Origin: a virus | Strand: one strand, 5' to 3' | DNA length: 64,000 bases | IMG/VR virus record: IMGVR_UViG_3300028840_004475 | Location: 83,748-147,747 of that record | Shown: positions 29,393 to 51,711 of the stretch, piece by piece | Layout: the number at the start of each line of letters is the position of its first letter | Numbering within the stretch: the first letter of the stretch is position 1 | Translations under genes and position numbers: made by a program | Notes under the pieces: model-generated | The model's input: only the letters and a program-made list of their open reading frames with translations | The model's database searches: none | What the model was told of the DNA's origin: nothing

Positions 29393-31126
29393 ATGCAGAC
29401 CTTCACCGAGGCAACGCGCTGGCGGAAGCCGACCAAGCGCAAGGGCAACGGCCGCAACTACGCCCAGCAGCGCCAGGTCATCCCAGGCAAGAGCCGGCTC
29501 ATGACTTCGACCTCGAGCGGCACCAAGGCCTTCAAGGTGGACGACTGGGGTCGCCTCGCCCGCTTCCTGATCCTGGGAGCAGACAAGCCGACCTTCTACG
29601 CGACGAAGCGCCAGCTGGTGCGGGACAACGCGAGGGTGGTCGAGCGCTGCATCAAGGAAGACGGTATCCGTACCGTGGACCTGATCGCGGAAGTGTCGAT
29701 TCAGGGCTCGGCGCCGAACAACGACCCGGCCCTGTTTGCGCTGGCAATGTGCGCGACCCTGGGTGGCCTCCACACCCGCCAGTACGCCCTCGGGCGCCTG
29801 TCGGACGTGGCGCGGATCGGAACGCACCTGTTCCACTTCGTGGCCTACTGCGAGGGTCTCGGTCACGGCTGGGGCCGGAACATGCGACGTGCGATCCGTG
29901 GGTGGTACAACGAGAAGGCGCCGGACAAGCTGGCGTATCAGATCCTGAAGTACAAGCAGCGTGACGGCTGGTCGCACAAGGATCTGCTCGCTCTGGCTCA
30001 CCCGCGCACTTCGAACAAGGAACGTGATGCCATCTACCGGTACATCGTGGCCGGCATCGATGGTCTGGGCAAGCGTACTGTCCTGAAGCACAACGGCCGC
30101 CGGAAGGTCCGCAAGACCTACCCGGACGTGTCACGTCACCTGCCGGCGCAGATCTTCGCCGCGCACGACGTGCACAAGGTCAGCAAGCGGAAGGCCAAGC
30201 AGCTCATCGAAGAGCACCGCATGACCCATGAGATGGTGCCGAACGAGCTGAAGAACGACCCAGAGGTCTGGGAGATCATGCTCGAGACGATGCCCATCGG
30301 AGCGATGGTGCGGAACCTCGGCAAGATGACCAGCATCGGCCTCCTGGACCGGATGTCCAGGGCCTCGAAGCTGGTGATCGACCGGCTGGGCGACATGGAG
30401 CGGATCCGTCGGGCGCGTCTGCACCCGATCGAGTTCCTCAAGGCCAACCGTGTCTACGGTGCCGGCCGCGGGGACAAGGGATCGCTGTGCTGGGATCCGG
30501 TGCGCGGGATCGTCCGAGCACTGGACGACGGGTTCTACCTGGCCTTCGGCGCGATCGAGCCGAGCGGCGTGAACACTGGTCTGTTCATCGACGTCTCTGG
30601 TTCGATGGCATGGGACACCTCACGCGTGAAGTCGATGGCGAACATGACCGCACGTGAGCTGTCAGGTGCCATGGCCCTGGTGACGGCGAACGTGGAGCCG
30701 TACTGGGAGATCATCGCCTTCTCCGGCGGCTACGACTCGCTCGAGGAGATCCCGATCGAGCCCGGCATGAAGCTGGACACGGTCGTGAACAGGATGGAGC
30801 GTATGCGAGCCGGCAGCACGAACCTGTCGCTACCGTTCGAGTACGCACGTGGACGCGGTGTCCCGATCGAGACGTTTATCGTCTACACAGACAACGAGAC
30901 GAATCACTTCGGCTCGCTGCATCCGTCGGAGGCACTGCGCAGGTACCGGAAAGAGACCGGCATCGACGCGAAGCTGATCGTGGTCGGCATGGTGGCGAAC
31001 GACATCTCGATCGCTGACCCGACCGATCACGGCATGTTGGATGTAGTTGGGTTCGACACGAACGCTCCGTCAGTGATGGCGGACTTCGCGAAGGGCGCCT
31101 ACGAGATCGACGTCGAGCAGGGCTGA
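29393..31126 (+). CDS. rsr: Ro60/Rsr RNA-binding protein (TROVE + vWA)
   Basis: DDW.RL.RFLILG, ARIGTHLFHF, KYKQRDGWSHKDLL.LAHP, MP.GAM.RNLGKMT, HP, DVSGSM MIDAS motif, YTDNET, IADP.D.GMLDVVGFD. Confidence 0.96.
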   Translation: MQTFTEATRWRKPTKRKGNGRNYAQQRQVIPGKSRLMTSTSSGTKAFKVDDWGRLARFLILGADKPTFYATKRQLVRDNARVVERCIKEDGIRTVDLIAEVSIQGSAPNNDPALFALAMCATLGGLHTRQYALGRLSDVARIGTHLFHFVAYCEGLGHGWGRNMRRAIRGWYNEKAPDKLAYQILKYKQRDGWSHKDLLALAHPRTSNKERDAIYRYIVAGIDGLGKRTVLKHNGRRKVRKTYPDVSRHLPAQIFAAHDVHKVSKRKAKQLIEEHRMTHEMVPNELKNDPEVWEIMLETMPIGAMVRNLGKMTSIGLLDRMSRASKLVIDRLGDMERIRRARLHPIEFLKANRVYGAGRGDKGSLCWDPVRGIVRALDDGFYLAFGAIEPSGVNTGLFIDVSGSMAWDTSRVKSMANMTARELSGAMALVTANVEPYWEIIAFSGGYDSLEEIPIEPGMKLDTVVNRMERMRAGSTNLSLPFEYARGRGVPIETFIVYTDNETNHFGSLHPSEALRRYRKETGIDAKLIVVGMVANDISIADPTDHGMLDVVGFDTNAPSVMADFAKGAYEIDVEQG

Positions 31127-31135
31127 CACGAGTTT

Positions 31136-31196
31136 GAGGGCCGGACGGCTTGGGTTATCTTGCAACGATACCCCCCAGGCCAAACACTTTGCCCTC
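31136..31196 (+). ncRNA. Y RNA 1 (short; apical loop TTGCAAC)
   Basis: GAGGGC-C-GGA...TTT-GCCCTC bulged-C Ro-binding stem, 9 nt after the Ro60 stop. Confidence 0.8.
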
Positions 31197-31205
31197 TTCA
31201 AGTTT

Positions 31206-31324
31206 GGCTGACGTAGCGATGTGGAAGGACACATGAGAGACGGCAGTAGCCCAAGGCTAGGTGTGTGCCGCCCCGTTTAGAGGAATCCTTGGGGAGCTGG
31301 TATCAAGGCCAGTCTGCGTCAGTC
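31206..31324 (+). ncRNA. Structured RNA, partly tRNA-like, without the Ro stem
   Basis: GGCTGACGTAG pairs with CTGCGTCAGTC; internal hairpins; same AGTTT leader as the Y RNA units. Confidence 0.55.
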
Positions 31325-31341
31325 GTTCTATGGAAGGATTT

Positions 31342-31452
31342 GTGGGCCGAATGGATTGCAGGGTTATCGATGGTTCGAATCCACCTGGCGGGTCTAAACC
31401 ACCCGCTATCGCCTAGCTGGTTAAGGCACCCCTGTACCAACAACTTGCCCAC
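31342..31452 (+). ncRNA. Y RNA 2, YrlA-type (T arm - closed acceptor - D arm)
   Basis: GTGGGCCGA...TTGCCCAC; GGTTCGAATCC, TGGCGGG/CCCGCTA, GCCTAGCTGGTTAAGGC. Confidence 0.88.
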
Positions 31453-31469
31453 TTTGAATTATGGGAGTT

Positions 31470-31597
31470 GCGGGCCGTAGACTGAACGTTATCTAAGCGC
31501 GCAATTTTGCGCTTATAGCTCAGTTGGTAGAGCGCCGGGGGTAGCCTCGGAGGTCGAGGGTTCGAATCCCTAACGACGTTCTTTCAGCTTTGTCCGC
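31470..31597 (+). ncRNA. Y RNA 3 (closed acceptor - D - anticodon-arm mimic - T)
   Basis: GCGGGCCGTA...TTTGTCCGC; TAAGCGC/GCGCTTA, TAGCTCAGTTGGTAGAGC, GGGTTCGAATCCC. Confidence 0.82.
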
Positions 31598-31619
31598 GCC
31601 CTACCTATTAGAGGAGTTT

Positions 31620-31682
31620 GAGGGCCGGAAGTCTTGGGTTATCACTTCGGATGATGCTTCCCAGGACACTAACTTTGCCCTC
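31620..31682 (+). ncRNA. Y RNA 4 (short; apical TATCA-CTTCGGA-TGATG)
   Basis: GAGGGCCGGA...TTTGCCCTC. Confidence 0.8.
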
Positions 31683-31701
31683 GTTTCTATACACTGAGTT
31701 T

Positions 31702-31768
31702 GTGGGCCGGAGGCAACGGGTTACCTTTCATTTGGAGAAAACACACCCATCGCCAACAACTTGCCCAC
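31702..31768 (+). ncRNA. Y RNA 5 (short; apical TTTC-ATTTGGA-GAAA)
   Basis: GTGGGCCGGA...CTTGCCCAC. Confidence 0.8.
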
Positions 31769-31787
31769 TTCGTTTTGAGAGGAGTTT

Positions 31788-31918
31788 GCGGGCCGTACGA
31801 AATAGGTTACCAATGCAAACTGTAGGTCGCGGGTTCGAGTCCCGTCATCGGCACCATGCCGATGTAGATCAGCTGGTAGATCAACAGTGGTTACACGCCT
31901 ACTTCACTTTTTGCCCGC
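31788..31918 (+). ncRNA. Y RNA 6 (tRNA permuted at the anticodon loop; acceptor closed by ACCAT)
   Basis: GCGGGCCGTA...TTTGCCCGC; ACTGT-AGGTC-T arm-CATCGGC ACCAT GCCGATG-D arm-ACAGT. Confidence 0.87.
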
Positions 31919-31940
31919 GTTTCAAAGGACACTATGGTTT

Positions 31941-32072
31941 GAGGGCCGGACGCACGTTGGGTTATCCACTCATAATGGAGAGGTCGCAGGTTCGAATCCT
32001 GTCGTGGCTTTAGCGAGTCACGTAGCTCAGTTGGTCAGAGCGCTAAACCCCCAATGTCAACTATTTGCCCTC
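31941..32072 (+). ncRNA. Y RNA 7 (anticodon arm CAT - T - closed acceptor - D)
   Basis: GAGGGCCGGA...TTTGCCCTC; TCCA-CTCATAA-TGGA, GCAGGTTCGAATCCTGT, CGTGGCT/AGTCACG, D arm. Confidence 0.87.
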
Positions 32073-32089
32073 GTTTTGAAGTAGAAGAG

Positions 32090-32577: not shown

Positions 32578-32578
32578 C

Positions 32579-32608
32579 TTGACAGATCGATAACCGATGC
32601 ATCACGAT
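32579..32608 (+). promoter_or_regulatory. sigma70-like promoter, tRNA operon 1
   Basis: TTGACA-N18-CACGAT. Confidence 0.65.
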
Positions 32609-32756: not shown

Positions 32757-32840
32757 GGATCGGTAGCTGAGCTGGTTTAGCAGCGGGCTGTTAACCCGTG
32801 CCCTCGGGCTACGTGGGTTCGAGTCCCACCCGATCCGCCA
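32757..32840 (+). tRNA. tRNA-Asn(GTT), long variable arm
   Basis: Cloverleaf, loop CTGTTAA, CCA end. Confidence 0.85.
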
Positions 32841-33407: not shown

Positions 33408-33512
33408 AAATGAAAAGCCCCTGGCCACAGTGACCAGGGGCACCCTCGCTCCTCGGGGGAAGGACAACGAAGGTGAGCTGATCGTAGCAGGAGGCGAACA
33501 TAGTTCAAGTGT

Positions 33513-33813: not shown

Positions 33814-34338
33814 CTAGGCGGCTTCGAGCAGCACGAAGTAGATGTCGCCGCGGAACTCGACCCAGTCGCCGACGGAACCGGCCGTGTACGAGACGCTGAC
33901 GGCGGTTCCGTTGCACACGTGTCCCTCAGGAACCAGCACGCCACCACCGCTCTCGTCGACTGCCAGGAGTGCGCCGAGGGTCTGACCAGTGTTCAGGAGA
34001 GTCGGCTTCTGGATGCCGACGGCGCTGCAGTCGATGCCGACACCGAAGCCATCAGCGTCACCACCAACCTCGGTGGAGAGCAGACCAATGTCCATGGTCT
34101 TGGTGGCACCGGTGACCTCGGCGGCCGTCACGTCCACGTAGTATCCAAGGACGACACTCTTCAGCGGAAGGTCGACGCCGCTGTCCTGCTCGGTTCCATC
34201 GGGAGCCGCAGTGATCGGAACCCGGAGGGTCTTCGTGACTGCACCGCTCGCACTGAGATCACATTGTTCGTTGATCTCTGTGGCGGTGGCAGTGATCGAC
34301 TCCATCCACCTCTTGATAGGACGAACGATAAACCACAT
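33814..34338 (-). CDS. Virion-like beta-rich protein (possible capsid decoration)
   Basis: GAGGAGG SD before ATG at 34338; ITATATEIN motif; GC3 bias like the structural genes. Confidence 0.65.
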   Translation of the reverse strand: MWFIVRPIKRWMESITATATEINEQCDLSASGAVTKTLRVPITAAPDGTEQDSGVDLPLKSVVLGYYVDVTAAEVTGATKTMDIGLLSTEVGGDADGFGVGIDCSAVGIQKPTLLNTGQTLGALLAVDESGGGVLVPEGHVCNGTAVSVSYTAGSVGDWVEFRGDIYFVLLEAA

Positions 34339-34488
34339 ATTCAGCCTCCTCGTACCTAGCCAGGGCACGGTCTCCCACTGAACCATTCAATGGGGTTACA
34401 CCCTCGTTGGGGATTGGCTGTGCATATACTGCTACACATTGGCATTTATGTGCAACACAACTTTCTGGGAGATCAACCGAGAATTATC

Positions 34489-34518
34489 TTGACTGATCGA
34501 ATAGCGATCTCTTACGGT
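34489..34518 (+). promoter_or_regulatory. sigma70-like promoter, tRNA operon 2
   Basis: TTGACT-N18-TACGGT; spacer begins GATCGA as in the operon 1 promoter. Confidence 0.6.
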
Positions 34519-34527
34519 GAAGATCTC

Positions 34528-34650
34528 ATGTTGTACTCGTTGACCAGGAAAGCCAGACCATCCGTCGCCACAGCAGTGGCGAAGCGGACGGGCATGTGCC
34601 TGGTTATCGAGGGACAGACCCGCCATTTTCGAGATCCCAGCGCGGCGTAA
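34528..34650 (+). CDS. Leader peptide 2: MLYSLTRKARPSVATAVAKRTGMCLVIEGQTRHFRDPSAA
   Basis: ATG 9 nt after the -10 box (near-leaderless); has a codon readable by each of the 20 tRNAs in operon 2. Confidence 0.75.
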   Translation: MLYSLTRKARPSVATAVAKRTGMCLVIEGQTRHFRDPSAA

Positions 34651-34743
34651 ACTGTCCTTCAGCACTGGGAACCCGAAATCGGACAGACTCGAAAGTAACC
34701 AGGCTGGACGACAGCTGCGTCGCATCTGCTGATGCACGCCTGT

Positions 34744-34821
34744 GGGGGTGTGGCCTAGTCTGGTCTAGGGCGCCTGACTGTCGATCAGGAGACTTCGCCG
34801 GTTCGAATCCGGTCGCCCCCG
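34744..34821 (+). tRNA. tRNA-Asp(GTC)
   Basis: Loop CTGTCGA. Confidence 0.88.
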
Positions 34822-34832
34822 CTCTTTTTTGT

Positions 34833-34910
34833 GCGTCCGTAGCTGAATTGGATCAGCGCAGGTCTACGAAGCCTGGTCGTATGAGAGTTCGAGTCTCTCC
34901 GGGCGCGCCA
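34833..34910 (+). tRNA. tRNA-Arg(ACG)
   Basis: Loop CTACGAA, CCA end. Confidence 0.9.
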
Positions 34911-34923
34911 GGAGACGAAGTGT

Positions 34924-34999
34924 TGCGGTGTAGCTCAGCTGGTAGAGCGTCTGACTCTGGATCAGAAGGTCGTCGGTTCGAGACCGGCCGCCGCTGCCA
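34924..34999 (+). tRNA. tRNA-Gln(CTG)
   Basis: Loop CTCTGGA, CCA end. Confidence 0.9.
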
Positions 35000-35007
35000 T
35001 GTTTTGA

Positions 35008-35085
35008 TGCGACGTAGAGCAGTCTGGTTAGCTCAGGTGGCTCATAACCACCAGGTCGTGGGTTCAAATCCCACCGTCGCTACCA
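35008..35085 (+). tRNA. tRNA-Met(CAT), initiator-like
   Basis: Loop CTCATAA, 1:72 mismatch, GAGC/GCTC D stem. Confidence 0.88.
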
Positions 35086-35130
35086 CTTTTGAGGGCGGTG
35101 TGTCCTGGGCATTCCGCCCAGGAGACATTC

Positions 35131-35207
35131 GCTCCCGTAGCTCAGTTGGTCAGAGCGCTGGTCTGATAAACCAGAGATCGTTGGTTCAAGTCCAACCGGG
35201 AGTACCA
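35131..35207 (+). tRNA. tRNA-Ile(GAT)
   Basis: Loop CTGATAA, CCA end. Confidence 0.92.
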
Positions 35208-35211
35208 TTTT

Positions 35212-35287
35212 GCCGGGGTAGTTCAGTTGGTAGAACGCCGGTGTCACATACCGGAGGTCGCTGGTTCGAACCCAGCTCCCGGTACCA
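35212..35287 (+). tRNA. tRNA-Val(CAC)
   Basis: Loop GTCACAT, CCA end. Confidence 0.9.
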
Positions 35288-35300
35288 GATAGGTGGTTGA

Positions 35301-35374
35301 CCCCGTGTCGTCTAACTGGAAGGACGCCAGGTTTCCAACCTGGAGGTCTCGGTTCGGTTCCGAGTACGGGGTCC
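35301..35374 (+). tRNA. tRNA-Gly(TCC)
   Basis: Loop TTTCCAA, U73, CCA end. Confidence 0.88.
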
Positions 35375-35413
35375 AATTCTTGGGGTTGAAAGGGTAAGTA
35401 GAGATGAACAACT

Positions 35414-35485
35414 GGATCCGTAGCTCAGCGGTTGAGCAGCTCCCTCATAAGGAGAAGGGCGTTGGTTCAAATCCAACCGGGTCCA
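35414..35485 (+). tRNA. tRNA-Met or Ile2 (CAT)
   Basis: Loop CTCATAA. Confidence 0.85.
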
Positions 35486-35516
35486 TCAGACGAAGGCGGC
35501 GGCGGTAGCAATATGT

Positions 35517-35593
35517 GCCCACGTAGCCTAATTGGAGAGGCAACTGATTTCTACTCAGTTAATATGCGGGTTCGAGTCCTGCCGTGGGCGCCA
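35517..35593 (+). tRNA. tRNA-Arg(TCT)
   Basis: Loop TTTCTAC, CCA end. Confidence 0.9.
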
Positions 35594-35596
35594 TGT

Positions 35597-35668
35597 GCGC
35601 TCGTAGCCTAGCGGAGAGGCACTGGCCTCCGAAGCCAGACCACGTAGGTTCGAATCCTGCCGAGCGCG
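35597..35668 (+). tRNA. tRNA-Arg(CCG)
   Basis: Loop CTCCGAA. Confidence 0.88.
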
Positions 35669-35725
35669 CAAAGGAGGTTGACATCGCGAACCATCTCGTT
35701 TAATTTCAAATGAGGAGGTCCGCAA

Positions 35726-36334
35726 ATGGCCAAGAAAGAAGAACGCAAACAAGCTAGAACTATGCGCAGGGGTGGAAAGTCGATAGTACAAATTGCGAAA
35801 TTACTTGGTGTATCAAAATCAAGTGTATATTTATGGACAAAGGATTTACCTCAACCAAGAAAATTCACGAAAGAATATCGACGTAAACGAAAAGAAAAAG
35901 CTCTAGCACGTTTGAAGAAAGAAAGAGAGAAACGAGAGAAAGAAAAAGCGAATCGCAAACTATTGAGTTGCGGAGATAGATGGATCATACGAGTGCCACC
36001 TGGGTACAAAGGCAAAACATATATCGGAGGAAGATACGTTCTTCAAAGTAGATATTTGATGGAACAAAAACTTGGAAGATACCTAAAATATAACGAGTGT
36101 GTTCACCATAAAAACGGGGATAAACTGGACGATAGAATTGAGAATTTGGAATTACATACTAGGAAATTACATGGAGAGATACATGCAATTAGAAAAAGGA
36201 CTAAACTCAAATGTCCAATATGTGATGTAGAATTTGAACGCAAAAACAGTTATGTGAAAAGTCACATAAAACAAGGATACAAAGGTTTTTATTGTAGCAA
36301 AAGGTGTGCGGCCAAGAAACAAAAGGGAGTATAG
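35726..36334 (+). mobile_element. Free-standing HNH homing endonuclease
   Basis: N-terminal HTH, VHHKNGDKLDDRIENL, C-terminal Zn finger; markedly AT-rich; own TTGACA-N17-TAATTT promoter at 35678. Confidence 0.88.
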
Positions 36335-36401
36335 CTCAGCTGTTAGCAGCATTCGGCTTTTAACCGAAAGGTCGTGGGTTGGAACCCCACTGCTCCCACC
36401 A
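36325..36401 (+). tRNA. tRNA-Lys(TTT)
   Basis: Loop CTTTTAA; atypical D and T loops; CCA end. Confidence 0.85.
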
Positions 36402-36402
36402 T

Positions 36403-36479
36403 GGGTTCGTAGCTCAAGTAGGCAGAGCATCCGGTTCTTACCCGGAAGGTTGGGGGATCGTGGCCCTCCGAGCCCACCA
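36403..36479 (+). tRNA. tRNA-Lys(CTT)
   Basis: Loop TTCTTAC; T loop ATCGTGG; CCA end. Confidence 0.85.
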
Positions 36480-36645
36480 AAGGAAAGACGATGTGCCCGA
36501 AGCGAGACGAAGACATGGAATTCATGAGGCGTTCACTCGAGCGCCCGTGCGAACCATTTTTCTGGCCGAAGGATCCGGATGACCAACCGGCCTACGGCTA
36601 CGAGGAAGAGGACAGGATCGAATACGATCCACCACAAAGGAGAAA

Positions 36646-36996
36646 GTGATGTTGGTCGAGGTAGGCACAGTGAAGTACGTCGTGAACTGGAAGCACGAGC
36701 GTGAGTTCGACAGGTACGCGCTCGTCCAGGACGCACAAGTGTCCGGCGATGCAAAGTTGCTACGAGCGCTGGAGCTGTCCACAGGGCGTACCATCTGTCG
36801 CATCGAGAAGCTTGGTGGTACGTCAGAGGTCGAAGCAACGGTGTACTGCTCGAAGAAGGACATCTTCGAGAAGGACGAGGGTCGGAAGAGATCCCTCAAG
36901 AGGGCACTCGCGTTGCGTGGCTTCATGAAGCAGGAGAGAACGCTCTTCTGGGACGAGTACCACAACCGGAAGCCTCAGACGGCAGAGGCTGCGTAG
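36646..36996 (+). CDS. Hypothetical phage protein
   Basis: CS.KD.FEK..GR..SL.RAL motif common in phage proteins. Confidence 0.6.
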   Translation: MMLVEVGTVKYVVNWKHEREFDRYALVQDAQVSGDAKLLRALELSTGRTICRIEKLGGTSEVEATVYCSKKDIFEKDEGRKRSLKRALALRGFMKQERTLFWDEYHNRKPQTAEAA

Positions 36997-37008
36997 GAGT
37001 GAGCACGA

Positions 37009-37084
37009 CCGCGTATAGTTCAGTTGGTAGAATGCAACCTTGCCAAGGTTGATGTCGTGGGTTCGAACCCCACTACGCGGTCCA
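37009..37084 (+). tRNA. tRNA-Gly(GCC)
   Basis: Loop TTGCCAA, CCA end. Confidence 0.9.
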
Positions 37085-37091
37085 ATTTCGT

Positions 37092-37166
37092 GCCCGAATA
37101 GTTCAGTGGTAGAACGCTTGCTCGACACGCAAGAGGTCGTTGGTTCGATACCAACTTCGGGCACCA
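37092..37166 (+). tRNA. tRNA-Val(GAC)
   Basis: Loop TCGACAC, CCA end. Confidence 0.9.
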
Positions 37167-37226
37167 GGCCGGCTGTGGCCAAACCATTACGGTGGTTCCG
37201 GGAGCACCCGGGCAGCCGGCCCCCAT

Positions 37227-37302
37227 GCTGGGGTAGTTCAGATGGTGGAACGCGTCCTTGGTAAGGACGAGGTCGCGGGTTCGAGCCCCGCCCCTAGCTC
37301 CA
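37227..37302 (+). tRNA. tRNA-Thr(GGT)
   Basis: Loop TTGGTAA, CCA end. Confidence 0.92.
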
Positions 37303-37304
37303 AC

Positions 37305-37380
37305 GCTGGCGTAGTTCAGGAGGTAGAACAGGTCACTCGTAATGATCAGGTCGCTGGTTCAATTCCAGCCGTCAGCTCCA
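37305..37380 (+). tRNA. tRNA-Thr(CGT)
   Basis: Loop CTCGTAA, CCA end. Confidence 0.92.
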
Positions 37381-37381
37381 T

Positions 37382-37457
37382 GCTGGGTTAGCTCAGTTGG
37401 TAGAGCAGCTGATTTGTAATCAGCAGGTCGCAGGTTCGAGCCCTGTCCCCAGCTCCA
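37382..37457 (+). tRNA. tRNA-Thr(TGT)
   Basis: Loop TTTGTAA, CCA end. Confidence 0.92.
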
Positions 37458-37561
37458 GGAAGAATGATGTTGGACAAAATAGACAAGTTCGTTCGTGACT
37501 ACCTGCTATTGCCGGCGACATTCGTGTACGCGGCACTGCAGATTTGGAGGCTGTTTATTGT

Positions 37562-37638
37562 GGGGTCATAGCTCAGTTGGGAGTAGCGCCTGCCTTGCAA
37601 GCAGGAGGTCGTCGGTTCGATCCCGTCTGACTCCACCA
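37562..37638 (+). tRNA. tRNA-Ala(TGC)
   Basis: Loop CTTGCAA, G3:U70, CCA end. Confidence 0.92.
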
Positions 37639-37719
37639 GCCGACCCGCGGTGAAATGTCATTGGTGTGGCCCCGTGTCAATGACAGAAGGCAGCCTACGG
37701 GGCATTTGTAGGAGGTTCT

Positions 37720-37795
37720 GTTCCCGTCGTCTAGCGGTCTAGGATCTCGGCCTCTCACGCCGAGGACGCGGGTTCGAGTCCCGCCGGGAACACCA
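37720..37795 (+). tRNA. tRNA-Glu(CTC)
   Basis: Loop CTCTCAC, CCA end. Confidence 0.92.
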
Positions 37796-37871
37796 GGCCG
37801 AACCACAGGGCCGAGGCAATCGTTTGATGTGGTGACAGCCCGGAGAGACGGGCACTGTGGGCGTGTGCTGT

Positions 37872-37944
37872 GGCGTGTGTAGCTCAGTGGTAGAGCGTAC
37901 GGCTGTGGCCCGTACTGTCGCGGGTTCGATTCCCGTCATACGCC
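37872..37944 (+). tRNA. tRNA-His(GTG)
   Basis: Loop CTGTGGC, G-1:C73. Confidence 0.9.
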
Positions 37945-37955
37945 CACCTTTTTTG

Positions 37956-37983
37956 TTGACGACCTGCAAAAGATCTCGATAAT
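37956..37983 (+). promoter_or_regulatory. sigma70-like promoter, tRNA operon 3
   Basis: TTGACG-N16-GATAAT after a T-tract. Confidence 0.6.
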
Positions 37984-38469: not shown

Positions 38470-38472
38470 TTT

Positions 38473-38550
38473 GGGACGTGACTCTGTCAGACACGCAGGC
38501 AGAGGGGTAGAGAAGTCGTGCTCTCCCGGTTCGAGTCCGGCGCGTCCCCA
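38473..38550 (+). ncRNA. tRNA-like RNA (acceptor and T arm intact, D and anticodon arms replaced)
   Basis: GGGACGT/GCGTCCC, CCGGTTCGAGTCCGG, two non-canonical hairpins. Confidence 0.6.
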
Positions 38551-38551
38551 C

Positions 38552-39027: not shown

Positions 39028-39309
39028 ATGGCTGCGAAGGCAATGACGAAGACAGAGATCTGCAAGAAGCTGGCAGAAGCCAACGACATGAAACCGAAGG
39101 AGGCAAAGCTCTTCCTCGAATCGCTGGCACAGCTGGCCTACAAGGAGGCGAAGAACGGCTTCACCATCCCTGGCATCGGCAAGCTCGTCAAGCAGCGCCG
39201 TAAGGCGCGTGACGGTCGCAACCCGGCCACCGGTGAGAAGATCCGCATCAAGGCCAAGACCGTCCTGAAGTTCAGGGTCTCGAAGGTCGCGAAGGACGCG
39301 ATTCTGTAG
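39028..39309 (+). CDS. hup: HU family DNA-binding protein
   Basis: MTKTEI...IPGIGK...RKARDGRNPATGEKIRIKAK.V.KFR. Confidence 0.93.
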   Translation: MAAKAMTKTEICKKLAEANDMKPKEAKLFLESLAQLAYKEAKNGFTIPGIGKLVKQRRKARDGRNPATGEKIRIKAKTVLKFRVSKVAKDAIL

Positions 39310-39390: not shown

Positions 39391-39415
39391 ACCTTGCCGC
39401 CTTCGGGCGGCTTTT

Positions 39416-50854: not shown

Positions 50855-50930
50855 CACCCGCGGTGGGACTCGAACCCACGACCTCCCAGGTCCATAGGCT
50901 GGGCACTCTACCGAACTGAGCTACGCGGGT
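50855..50930 (-). tRNA. tRNA-like element with 9-nt anticodon loop CCTATGGAC (copy A)
   Basis: ACCCGCG/CGCGGGT acceptor, canonical D arm, CCCAG/CTGGG, GTGGGTTCGAGTCCCAC. Confidence 0.8.
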
Positions 50931-51621: not shown

Positions 51622-51635
51622 ACTCTCTCCTGTTG

Positions 51636-51711
51636 CGCCCGCGGCGGGACTCGAACCCGCGACCTCCAAGGTCCATAGGCTTGGCACTCTACCTTGCTGA
51701 GCTACGCGGGC
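51636..51711 (-). tRNA. tRNA-like element with 9-nt anticodon loop CCTATGGAC (copy B)
   Basis: GCCCGCG/CGCGGGC, CCAAG/CTTGG, GCGGGTTCGAGTCCCGC. Confidence 0.8.

Follow-up and report, generated by a model that had tools for sequence, protein, structure and literature searches.

Leader 2, the sequence ahead of the second tRNA transcription unit of an uncultured IMG/VR phage, is self-complementary beyond chance. We read it as an orphan structured 5′ leader of a tRNA precursor, whose hairpins probably aid folding and processing, and we put the probability of this reading at about 0.45. We infer that the leader is transcribed, that it is removed by RNase P and that it has an insulating or processing role. 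A first-pass annotation had described mutually exclusive RNA pairings in this region and taken them for an attenuator-like switch. The pairings are real; they are mostly sub-optimal and come as by-products of the many short repeats in the sequence, and they are not the arms of a termination switch. The attenuator interpretation of leader 2 is partly supported.

The phage record is 147.7 kb long and bears direct terminal repeats; the window analysed here takes in its right-hand 64 kb. The window carries a cluster of 37 tRNA genes on the + strand between positions 32757 and 39490; many phages have near-complete tRNA sets. Well away from this main array, the minus strand holds two tRNA-His genes (50855–50930 and 51635–51711), whose anticodon, ATG, is unusual. 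The leader 2 region is bounded by a minus-strand gene of 174 aa (33817–34338) and by tRNA-Asp, and unit 2 comprises 20 tRNAs (34744–37945). A 13-nt motif, CTTGACnGATCGA, has exact copies at only two positions in the whole 147.7-kb genome, 34488 and 32578, of which the latter precedes tRNA block 1; the alignment between the two promoter-like sites spans about 55 nt around the motif. These near-identical sites (32578–32608 and 34488–34518), which have the form CTTGACnGATCGA..CGAT..ACGnTGAA, occur genome-wide only before tRNA blocks 1 and 2. A different promoter-like site, TTGACG-16-GATAAT, precedes tRNA block 3 at 37956–37983. Based on the promoter-like site and its duplication, we assign the stretch from about 34525 to 34743 to the second tRNA transcription unit as its 5′ leader. 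Its features are collected in Table 1.

Table 1. Positions of leader 2 features and flanking elements within the 64-kb window.
Feature	Position	Strand	Remarks
Promoter-like site	34488–34518	+	CTTGACTGATCGA, 18-nt spacer, TACGGT; predicted transcript start near 34525
40-codon ORF (MLYSL...PSAA, stop TAA)	34528–34650	+	Overlaps leader helices
Segment A (CTCG-t-TGACCAGG), upstream partner of B	34536–34548	+	A:B duplex −20.2 kcal/mol
Perfect 6-bp hairpin CGCCAC-agca-GTGGCG, inside A:B	34566–34581	+	Probability 0.996 in full leader
Segment B (GCCTGGTTA-TCGAG)	34598–34611	+	Mutually exclusive partners: A upstream, F downstream
GGACAG copy 1	34612–34617	+	Partner of CTGTCC (helix Pa); probability 0.64–0.68 in full leader
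Extended hairpin, 5′ strand (TTTCG-a-G-a-TCCCAG)	34627–34640	+	TTTCGAG can instead pair with CTCGAAA of F (helix D:F)
CTGTCC	34652–34657	+	Three possible partners: GGACAG 34612, GGACAG 34681, GACAG 34710
Domain II, irregular 63-nt hairpin (CUGUC/GACAG, UUCAGC/GCUGGA, CUGG/CCAG)	34652–34714	+	Dominant in the untranslated 3′ part of the leader
Extended hairpin, 3′ strand (CTGGGA-a-C-c-CGAAA)	34665–34678	+	
GGACAG copy 2	34681–34686	+	GGACAGAC is a direct 8-nt repeat of 34612–34619
Segment F (CTCGA-aag-TAACCAGGC), downstream partner of B	34688–34704	+	B:F duplex −22.4 kcal/mol
Domain III, 9-bp hairpin GCGU-c-GCAUC-ugcu-GAUGC-ACGC	34717–34739	+	Ends 4 nt before tRNA-Asp; no U-tract
tRNA-Asp (GTC)	34744–34822	+	First of 20 tRNAs in transcription unit 2
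T6 run	34825–34830	+	After tRNA-Asp, 2 nt before tRNA-Arg

Several other elements lie in and around the array. An HNH endonuclease with an N-terminal helix-turn-helix (35726–36331) stands between tRNA-Arg(CCG) and tRNA-Lys, in a stretch whose GC content is 32–39% against about 57% for the genome; it has probably entered the array as a homing endonuclease. A 93-aa ORF in the tRNA region (39028–39306) resembles HU/IHF-type DNA-binding proteins, as judged by eye from its translation, and searches with the 116-aa and 91-aa ORFs inside the array returned no relatives. The spacer 38470–38551, with a T-arm-like GGTTCGAGTCCGG and an acceptor-like end, matches the tRNA-Sec model weakly (19.6 bits) and may derive from a tRNA gene that has decayed. 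At 39396–39415, within the array, a canonical intrinsic terminator (GCCGCC-uucg-GGCGGC followed by UUUU) separates tRNA-Glu(TTC) from Gln(TTG), the last tRNA. On the minus strand, an 11-bp hairpin followed by TTTTCATTTT (33417–33441) is flanked by two tRNA-Leu genes; transcription of the 174-aa gene would end there, after running antisense through three tRNAs.

The complementary segments listed in the first-pass annotation are all present in the DNA, at the positions given there. CTGTCC (34652–57) has GGACAG on both sides (34612–17 and 34681–86); CCTGGTTA-TCGAG (34599–611) pairs with CTCGA-aag-TAACCAGG (34688–703), the perfect part being the 9 bp of GCCTGGTTA/TAACCAGGC; TCCCAG (34635–40) pairs with CTGGGA (34665–70); and GGCATGTGC (34591–99) matches GCACGCC (34734–40) through 7 pairs and a 2-nt bulge. 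The annotation had passed over the upstream partner of segment B at 34536–48 (CTCGtTGACCAGG), a third GACAG (34710–14) and the extension of the TCCCAG/CTGGGA helix to 12 bp (34627–40 with 34665–78).

Between 34590 and 34743 there are six perfect helices of at least 6 bp, compared with 2.1 ± 1.4 in 2000 dinucleotide shuffles (P 0.016), and the longest, at 9 bp, has a P of 0.03 against the same shuffles; all P values for the leader region are optimistic, as the region was chosen by eye and the statistics are post hoc. The number of helix pairs with a common strand is by itself not significant in this stretch (P 0.14, shuffles). Both helix values are reached by 0.85% of 703 other 154-nt windows in the 64 kb, and 5.9% of GC-matched windows fold as well as 34590–34743, which has an MFE z-score of −2.63. 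For the whole leader (34526–34743) the MFE z-score falls to −3.64 and none of 200 shuffles was as good. This value lies outside all 59 background windows taken from the genome (mean −0.29, sd 1.2, minimum −3.2).

Folding of the full leader gave an MFE of −87.8 kcal/mol, and the fold that we propose for the precursor would have three parts. In the first, helix A:B (34536–48 with 34599–611) would close around the perfect hairpin; its pairing probability in the full leader is 0.98, and one G-U pair improves it on the + strand. The second would be the irregular hairpin 34652–34714, with a near-isoenergetic alternative made of TTTCGAG/CTCGAAA and TCCCAG/CTGGGA. The state that combines TTTCGAG/CTCGAAA with the extended TCCCAG/CTGGGA helix has an energy of −87.0 kcal/mol, 0.8 above the MFE. 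The third part would be the 9-bp hairpin whose end lies 4 nt from tRNA-Asp. This hairpin has a probability of 0.8–0.95 in the full leader, is present in both low-energy states and is followed by CUGUGGGGG.

The ensemble of the full leader is diffuse (MFE frequency 0.0012). For the 93 nt downstream of the stop codon (34651–34743) we found a single dominant fold independent of the ORF sequence, a result that the first-pass annotation had named as counting against a ribosome-dependent switch. Here the MFE structure is the centroid, its frequency is 0.50 and its z-score −3.91, a value matched by 0 of 200 shuffles. The fold consists of two hairpins, 34652–34714 and 34717–39, and uses no ORF sequence.

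Hairpins of comparable strength recur elsewhere in the array. Two inter-tRNA spacers, 35097–35129 and 37167–37221, each reach a z-score of −3.4, and one of them is built on CCTGGGC/GCCCAGG. The leaders of the other units, 1 and 3, show no structure (z +0.39 and +0.43), so the structure is not common to a leader-peptide mechanism. Together this fits stable hairpins beside tRNAs as a general habit of the phage and does not fit a mechanism tied to a leader peptide. In the structured-leader reading, the second tRNA unit would be transcribed from a duplicated promoter found at just two tRNA blocks, and the leader would presumably be removed by RNase P at 34743/34744. Its hairpins, like those of the array spacers, may keep non-tRNA sequence locally paired, so that the neighbouring tRNA could fold and be processed cleanly; they may also mark or protect the precursor ends.

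The phage T4 tRNA cluster is an example of a polycistronic tRNA precursor with extra stable RNAs. In such precursors, as proposed for leader 2, non-tRNA sequence is co-transcribed and removed by RNase P and other nucleases, and structured spacers recur in the present array. Leader 2 differs in its length of about 218 nt, which is much longer than usual, in overlapping an ORF and in its orphan sequence.

The leader appears to be an orphan by every search that we made. Rfam covariance models applied to 34300–34830 matched tRNA-Asp alone, even at E values up to 10, and across the whole window the tRNAs were the sole matches at gathering score; the match to a known ncRNA family that the first-pass annotation would have held against its switch is absent from Rfam. 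No homologue of the leader was found in the phages, viral contigs, metagenomes and prokaryote genomes searched. Against cultured phages, blastn and tblastn matched only the tRNA. The promoter pattern gave two chance matches in coding DNA of AT-rich phages, the exact tRNA-Asp D-arm word gave none, and the B..F pattern gave 6 matches in prokaryote genomes against about 8 expected by chance, with interiors that were all unrelated.

The 174-aa protein has relatives at three viral and five metagenome loci, none of which has tRNAs alongside; a Ro60 search returned one distant locus, and a Y-RNA pattern search returned 116 loci, none with the leader. The phage with the closest terminase (G005; 52% identity, 143 kb, 25 tRNAs) also has tRNA-Asp first after a gap, with protein genes running up to tRNA-Asp and no leader. 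Streptomyces phage Bmoc has a similar tRNA-Asp in a different layout. Because G005 lacks the leader and relatives of the 174-aa gene are never found beside tRNAs, the leader appears young and lineage-specific. Its origin probably lies in the splitting of the tRNA array by a copy of promoter 1 together with the reverse-oriented gene. Separately, G005 contains a 141-nt match to the tRNA model between tRNA-Val and tRNA-Leu (L158, 6041–6181), far over tRNA length, which may be an intron-containing tRNA.

The opposite strand of the leader folds as strongly as the + strand (z −3.62), and the self-complementarity could therefore stem from inverted repeats at the DNA level and not from selection on the RNA. 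A somewhat unlikely alternative to the structured leader follows this line: the structure would have no selected function and would be a neutral by-product of local duplications and template switching, which left direct and inverted short repeats. Short repeats abound in the leader (CCAG/CTGG seven times; GGACAGAC, CTCG..ACCAGG and TCGAG two times each), and its helices are nearly all Watson–Crick and made of repeated words. The diffuse full-leader ensemble and the lack of a homologue in any collection searched point the same way. The repeats might have arisen, again with a rather low likelihood, when the reverse-oriented gene and the copied promoter entered the tRNA array; the 174-aa neighbour is never tRNA-linked in relatives, and the promoter duplicates promoter 1. 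However, a z-score of −3.6 outside all 59 background windows is not what neutrality would favour. Nor is the sharply defined fold of the 3′ part, and the recurrence of strong hairpins in other array spacers suggests a use.

The ORF that overlaps the leader helices has no Shine-Dalgarno sequence, and its ATG lies about 10 nt from the −10 hexamer. Since the ATG is also 2–3 nt from the predicted start, the ORF is readable only as a leaderless message. Protein-family and homologue searches with its product drew a blank. Its codons match 19 of 19 distinct anticodons of the 20 downstream tRNAs (34744–37945). None of 20000 samples of 40 codons from long ORFs of the genome reached this coverage, and the P value against dinucleotide shuffles of the ORF is about 0.002, in a comparison made post hoc. 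For the whole 37-tRNA array, the ORF codons cover 32 of 36 distinct anticodons (P 0.001 against dinucleotide shuffles). The anticodon coverage is the strongest point for a translated leader and keeps the switch reading alive. The structured-leader reading leaves it unexplained, together with the 1:2/2:3 layout of segments A, B and F (P 0.023).

We also considered the leader as a protein-coding gene on either strand and rejected this, there being neither family match nor homologue. The 86-aa + strand and 101-aa minus-strand ORFs gave no Pfam or PHROG matches at E 1, and the protein readings of both strands had no relative among 5.8 billion proteins.

A translation-coupled switch is in our judgement decidedly unlikely. 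Ribosomes on the leaderless 40-codon ORF would melt A:B, and their pace would decide between A:B, B:F and D:F; the chosen fold would then, just as doubtfully, tune tRNA output without a classic terminator, through processing, Rho or RNA stability. A little more doubtful again is the specific proposal that leader 2 is a ribosome-read gauge of the phage's tRNA supply, in which translation speed would set the fold and the fold would set the yield of the 20-tRNA precursor, independently of a terminator. Besides the anticodon coverage, the layout of the helices argues for a switch: B is strongly paired on both sides, with A inside the ORF, and its two-partner statistic (−20.2 and −22.4 kcal/mol) has a P value of 0.023 in 300 shuffles. 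The 3′ half, moreover, has two states just 0.8 kcal/mol apart.

The favoured fold departs from the pairing scheme on which the first-pass annotation built its switch. In the full leader, B:F as a closing helix has a probability of 0.00, as B is occupied by A, and forcing it costs 5.9 kcal/mol relative to the MFE (−81.9 kcal/mol). Pairing of CTGTCC with the second GGACAG (helix Pc) likewise has a probability of 0.00 (forced −79.1 kcal/mol, +8.7), and GGCAUGUGC/GCACGCC, when forced, lies at −78.0 kcal/mol, 9.8 above the MFE.

The annotation had further proposed that ribosome position selects the fold, to be checked by constrained folding with 30-nt footprints. Mutually exclusive helices do overlap the 40-codon ORF, and footprints moved along 34528–34650 do change the predicted fold and shift helix probabilities, but none of the alternative folds alters anything that might serve as an output. 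Even with A masked, B:F stays unfavoured (0.01–0.19); it reaches 0.7–0.9 only with the P site at 34576–82 (0.87 at 34576). The response to masking is weak evidence for a switch, because any structure that overlaps an ORF would respond in this way.

Our scan agrees with the first-pass annotation that no hairpin with a U-tract precedes tRNA-Asp: the + strand has no terminator-like site from 34340 to 34744. Canonical terminators are nevertheless in use elsewhere in this phage (39396–39415 and, on the minus strand, 33417–33441). The T6 run after tRNA-Asp, which had also been pointed out, is there but is not a special terminator, because other tRNAs of the array have T-rich trailers as well. With no terminator, and with the hairpin next to tRNA-Asp forming in both low-energy states, the switch has no visible output, and leader 2 does not look like a working attenuator. 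The missing Shine-Dalgarno sequence, the ATG so near the −10 hexamer and the unstructured leaders 1 and 3 also weigh against a switch.

Like the leader-peptide attenuators of the trpL, hisL, ilvL and pheL type, which control amino-acid operons, leader 2 opens its operon with a short ORF and has a segment, B, that can pair either with A inside the ORF or with F, which is the 1:2/2:3 layout. Unlike them, it has no 3:4 terminator hairpin with a U-tract; its segment 1 is a spread-out catalogue of codons and not a regulatory codon run; its ORF has no Shine-Dalgarno sequence and a stop codon 37 nt past segment 2; it precedes tRNAs and not enzymes; and its 2:3 pairing is unfavoured even when segment 1 is masked. 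In translational attenuation leaders such as ermC and cat, a ribosome in the leader ORF governs alternative hairpins without a transcription terminator, as the switch reading would have it for leader 2. Those leaders, however, unmask the ribosome-binding site of the next gene, whereas leader 2 precedes a tRNA and we found no equivalent masked signal. In the literature searched, no description of tRNA operons controlled by a leader peptide turned up.

A further reading, which we regard as improbable, is that 34595–34710 is an independent small RNA, acting in trans as a stable RNA or as a protein decoy and perhaps related to the phage's Y RNAs. It would be closed by helix B:F around the extended hairpin, whose apical CUGUCC could, at similarly long odds, kiss either flanking GGACAG as a pseudoknot. 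Folded alone, this module has B:F at a probability of 0.99, an MFE structure equal to the centroid and a z-score of −2.97, and the pseudoknot geometry seems feasible, with loops of 17, 11 and 7 nt. B:F acts as a closing helix only when segment A is omitted, since A takes B in the full leader, where B:F is at 0.00. The module also has no promoter or terminator of its own, and it has no Rfam match even at E 10. The first-pass annotation had offered an independent pseudoknotted ncRNA as its alternative; the results neither support nor refute it.

A Ro60 gene (TROVE and vWA domains; 29393–31123) followed by seven tandem Y RNAs lies 2.5–5 kb upstream of the leader, and segment B contains GGTTATC, a word present in four of the seven. 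These points had suggested a Y-RNA paralogue, which we rejected, as both the Y-RNA HMM and Rfam YrlA miss the leader. The HMM, built on the 5′ halves of the seven Y RNAs, finds each of them (E 2e-6 to 3e-4) and leaves the leader unmatched at E 1000. The Ro60-binding helix with its bulged C, here GGGCCGnA with TTTGCCC, is absent from the leader, and no tRNA or YrlA model matched a tRNA-like module (T arm, D arm) within it; TTCGAGATCCC resembles a T loop with a 3′ stem and has no 5′ stem partner in place. Leader 2 thus shares with YrlA and Y RNAs (Rfam RF02553) a long closing helix with a structured module, the word GGTTATC and a gene adjoining tRNAs. It differs from them in lacking the Ro60-binding helix, the tRNA-like T and D arms, any match to Rfam or the HMM, and either flanking motif (5′ or 3′) of the Y-RNA array.

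The Y RNAs themselves are worth recording. Together with the Ro60/Rsr orthologue they occupy 29393–32075, and their units have in common a 5′ end GAGTTTGnGGGCCGnA...GGGTTATC and a 3′ end AACTTTGCCCTC. Against Rfam YrlA, two of them reach 42–49 bits where the gathering score is 69, and two further units match the nematode sRNA family ceN72-3_ceN74-2. The word GGGUUAUC of the phage Y RNAs is also conserved in the upper stem of animal Y RNAs and of nematode sbRNAs.

Two roles based on pairing with other nucleic acids were tried and rejected. Among the 37 tRNAs, segment A pairs most strongly with the 5′ third of tRNA-Asp (−26.1 kcal/mol), but Asp ranked fifth when the whole leader was scanned without bias against all tRNA parts. 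A trans-acting antisense role failed on the sole 15-nt perfect match elsewhere in the genome (9012–9026), which is sense-identical to a minus-strand coding gene and not complementary to it; this match also speaks against the small-RNA reading.

Very improbable is a DNA-level element in which proteins would bind the repeats, for instance as an operator or roadblock acting on the tRNA promoter or on the divergent 174-aa gene: the structure is strand-symmetric, the repeats adjoin a relatively AT-rich divergent promoter region (GC 0.485–0.50 against about 0.6 in flanking DNA) and the 218 nt of the leader hold three CCWGG sites, but the repeats lie downstream of the predicted start and extend over 170 bp at irregular spacing, G-U pairs in the A:B and D:F helices favour a + strand RNA, and a genome-wide DNA motif was rejected because the repeat words are not enriched elsewhere (GGACAGAC 8 against 4.5 expected, CCTGGTTA 6 against 4.5).

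To our knowledge, control of tRNA output in phages is almost unstudied. The main practical result here is negative: the pairing scheme of the first-pass annotation is not what folding favours, and no output of it is visible. If it were true, a translation-sensing switch would bring tRNA supply, beside amino-acid supply, under leader-peptide control, without a terminator, and a gauge of tRNA supply would be a kind of feedback undescribed for tRNA genes. What the present evidence gives is an orphan, strongly folded leader in a phage that puts stable hairpins before and between its tRNAs, where they probably aid the folding and processing of the precursor.
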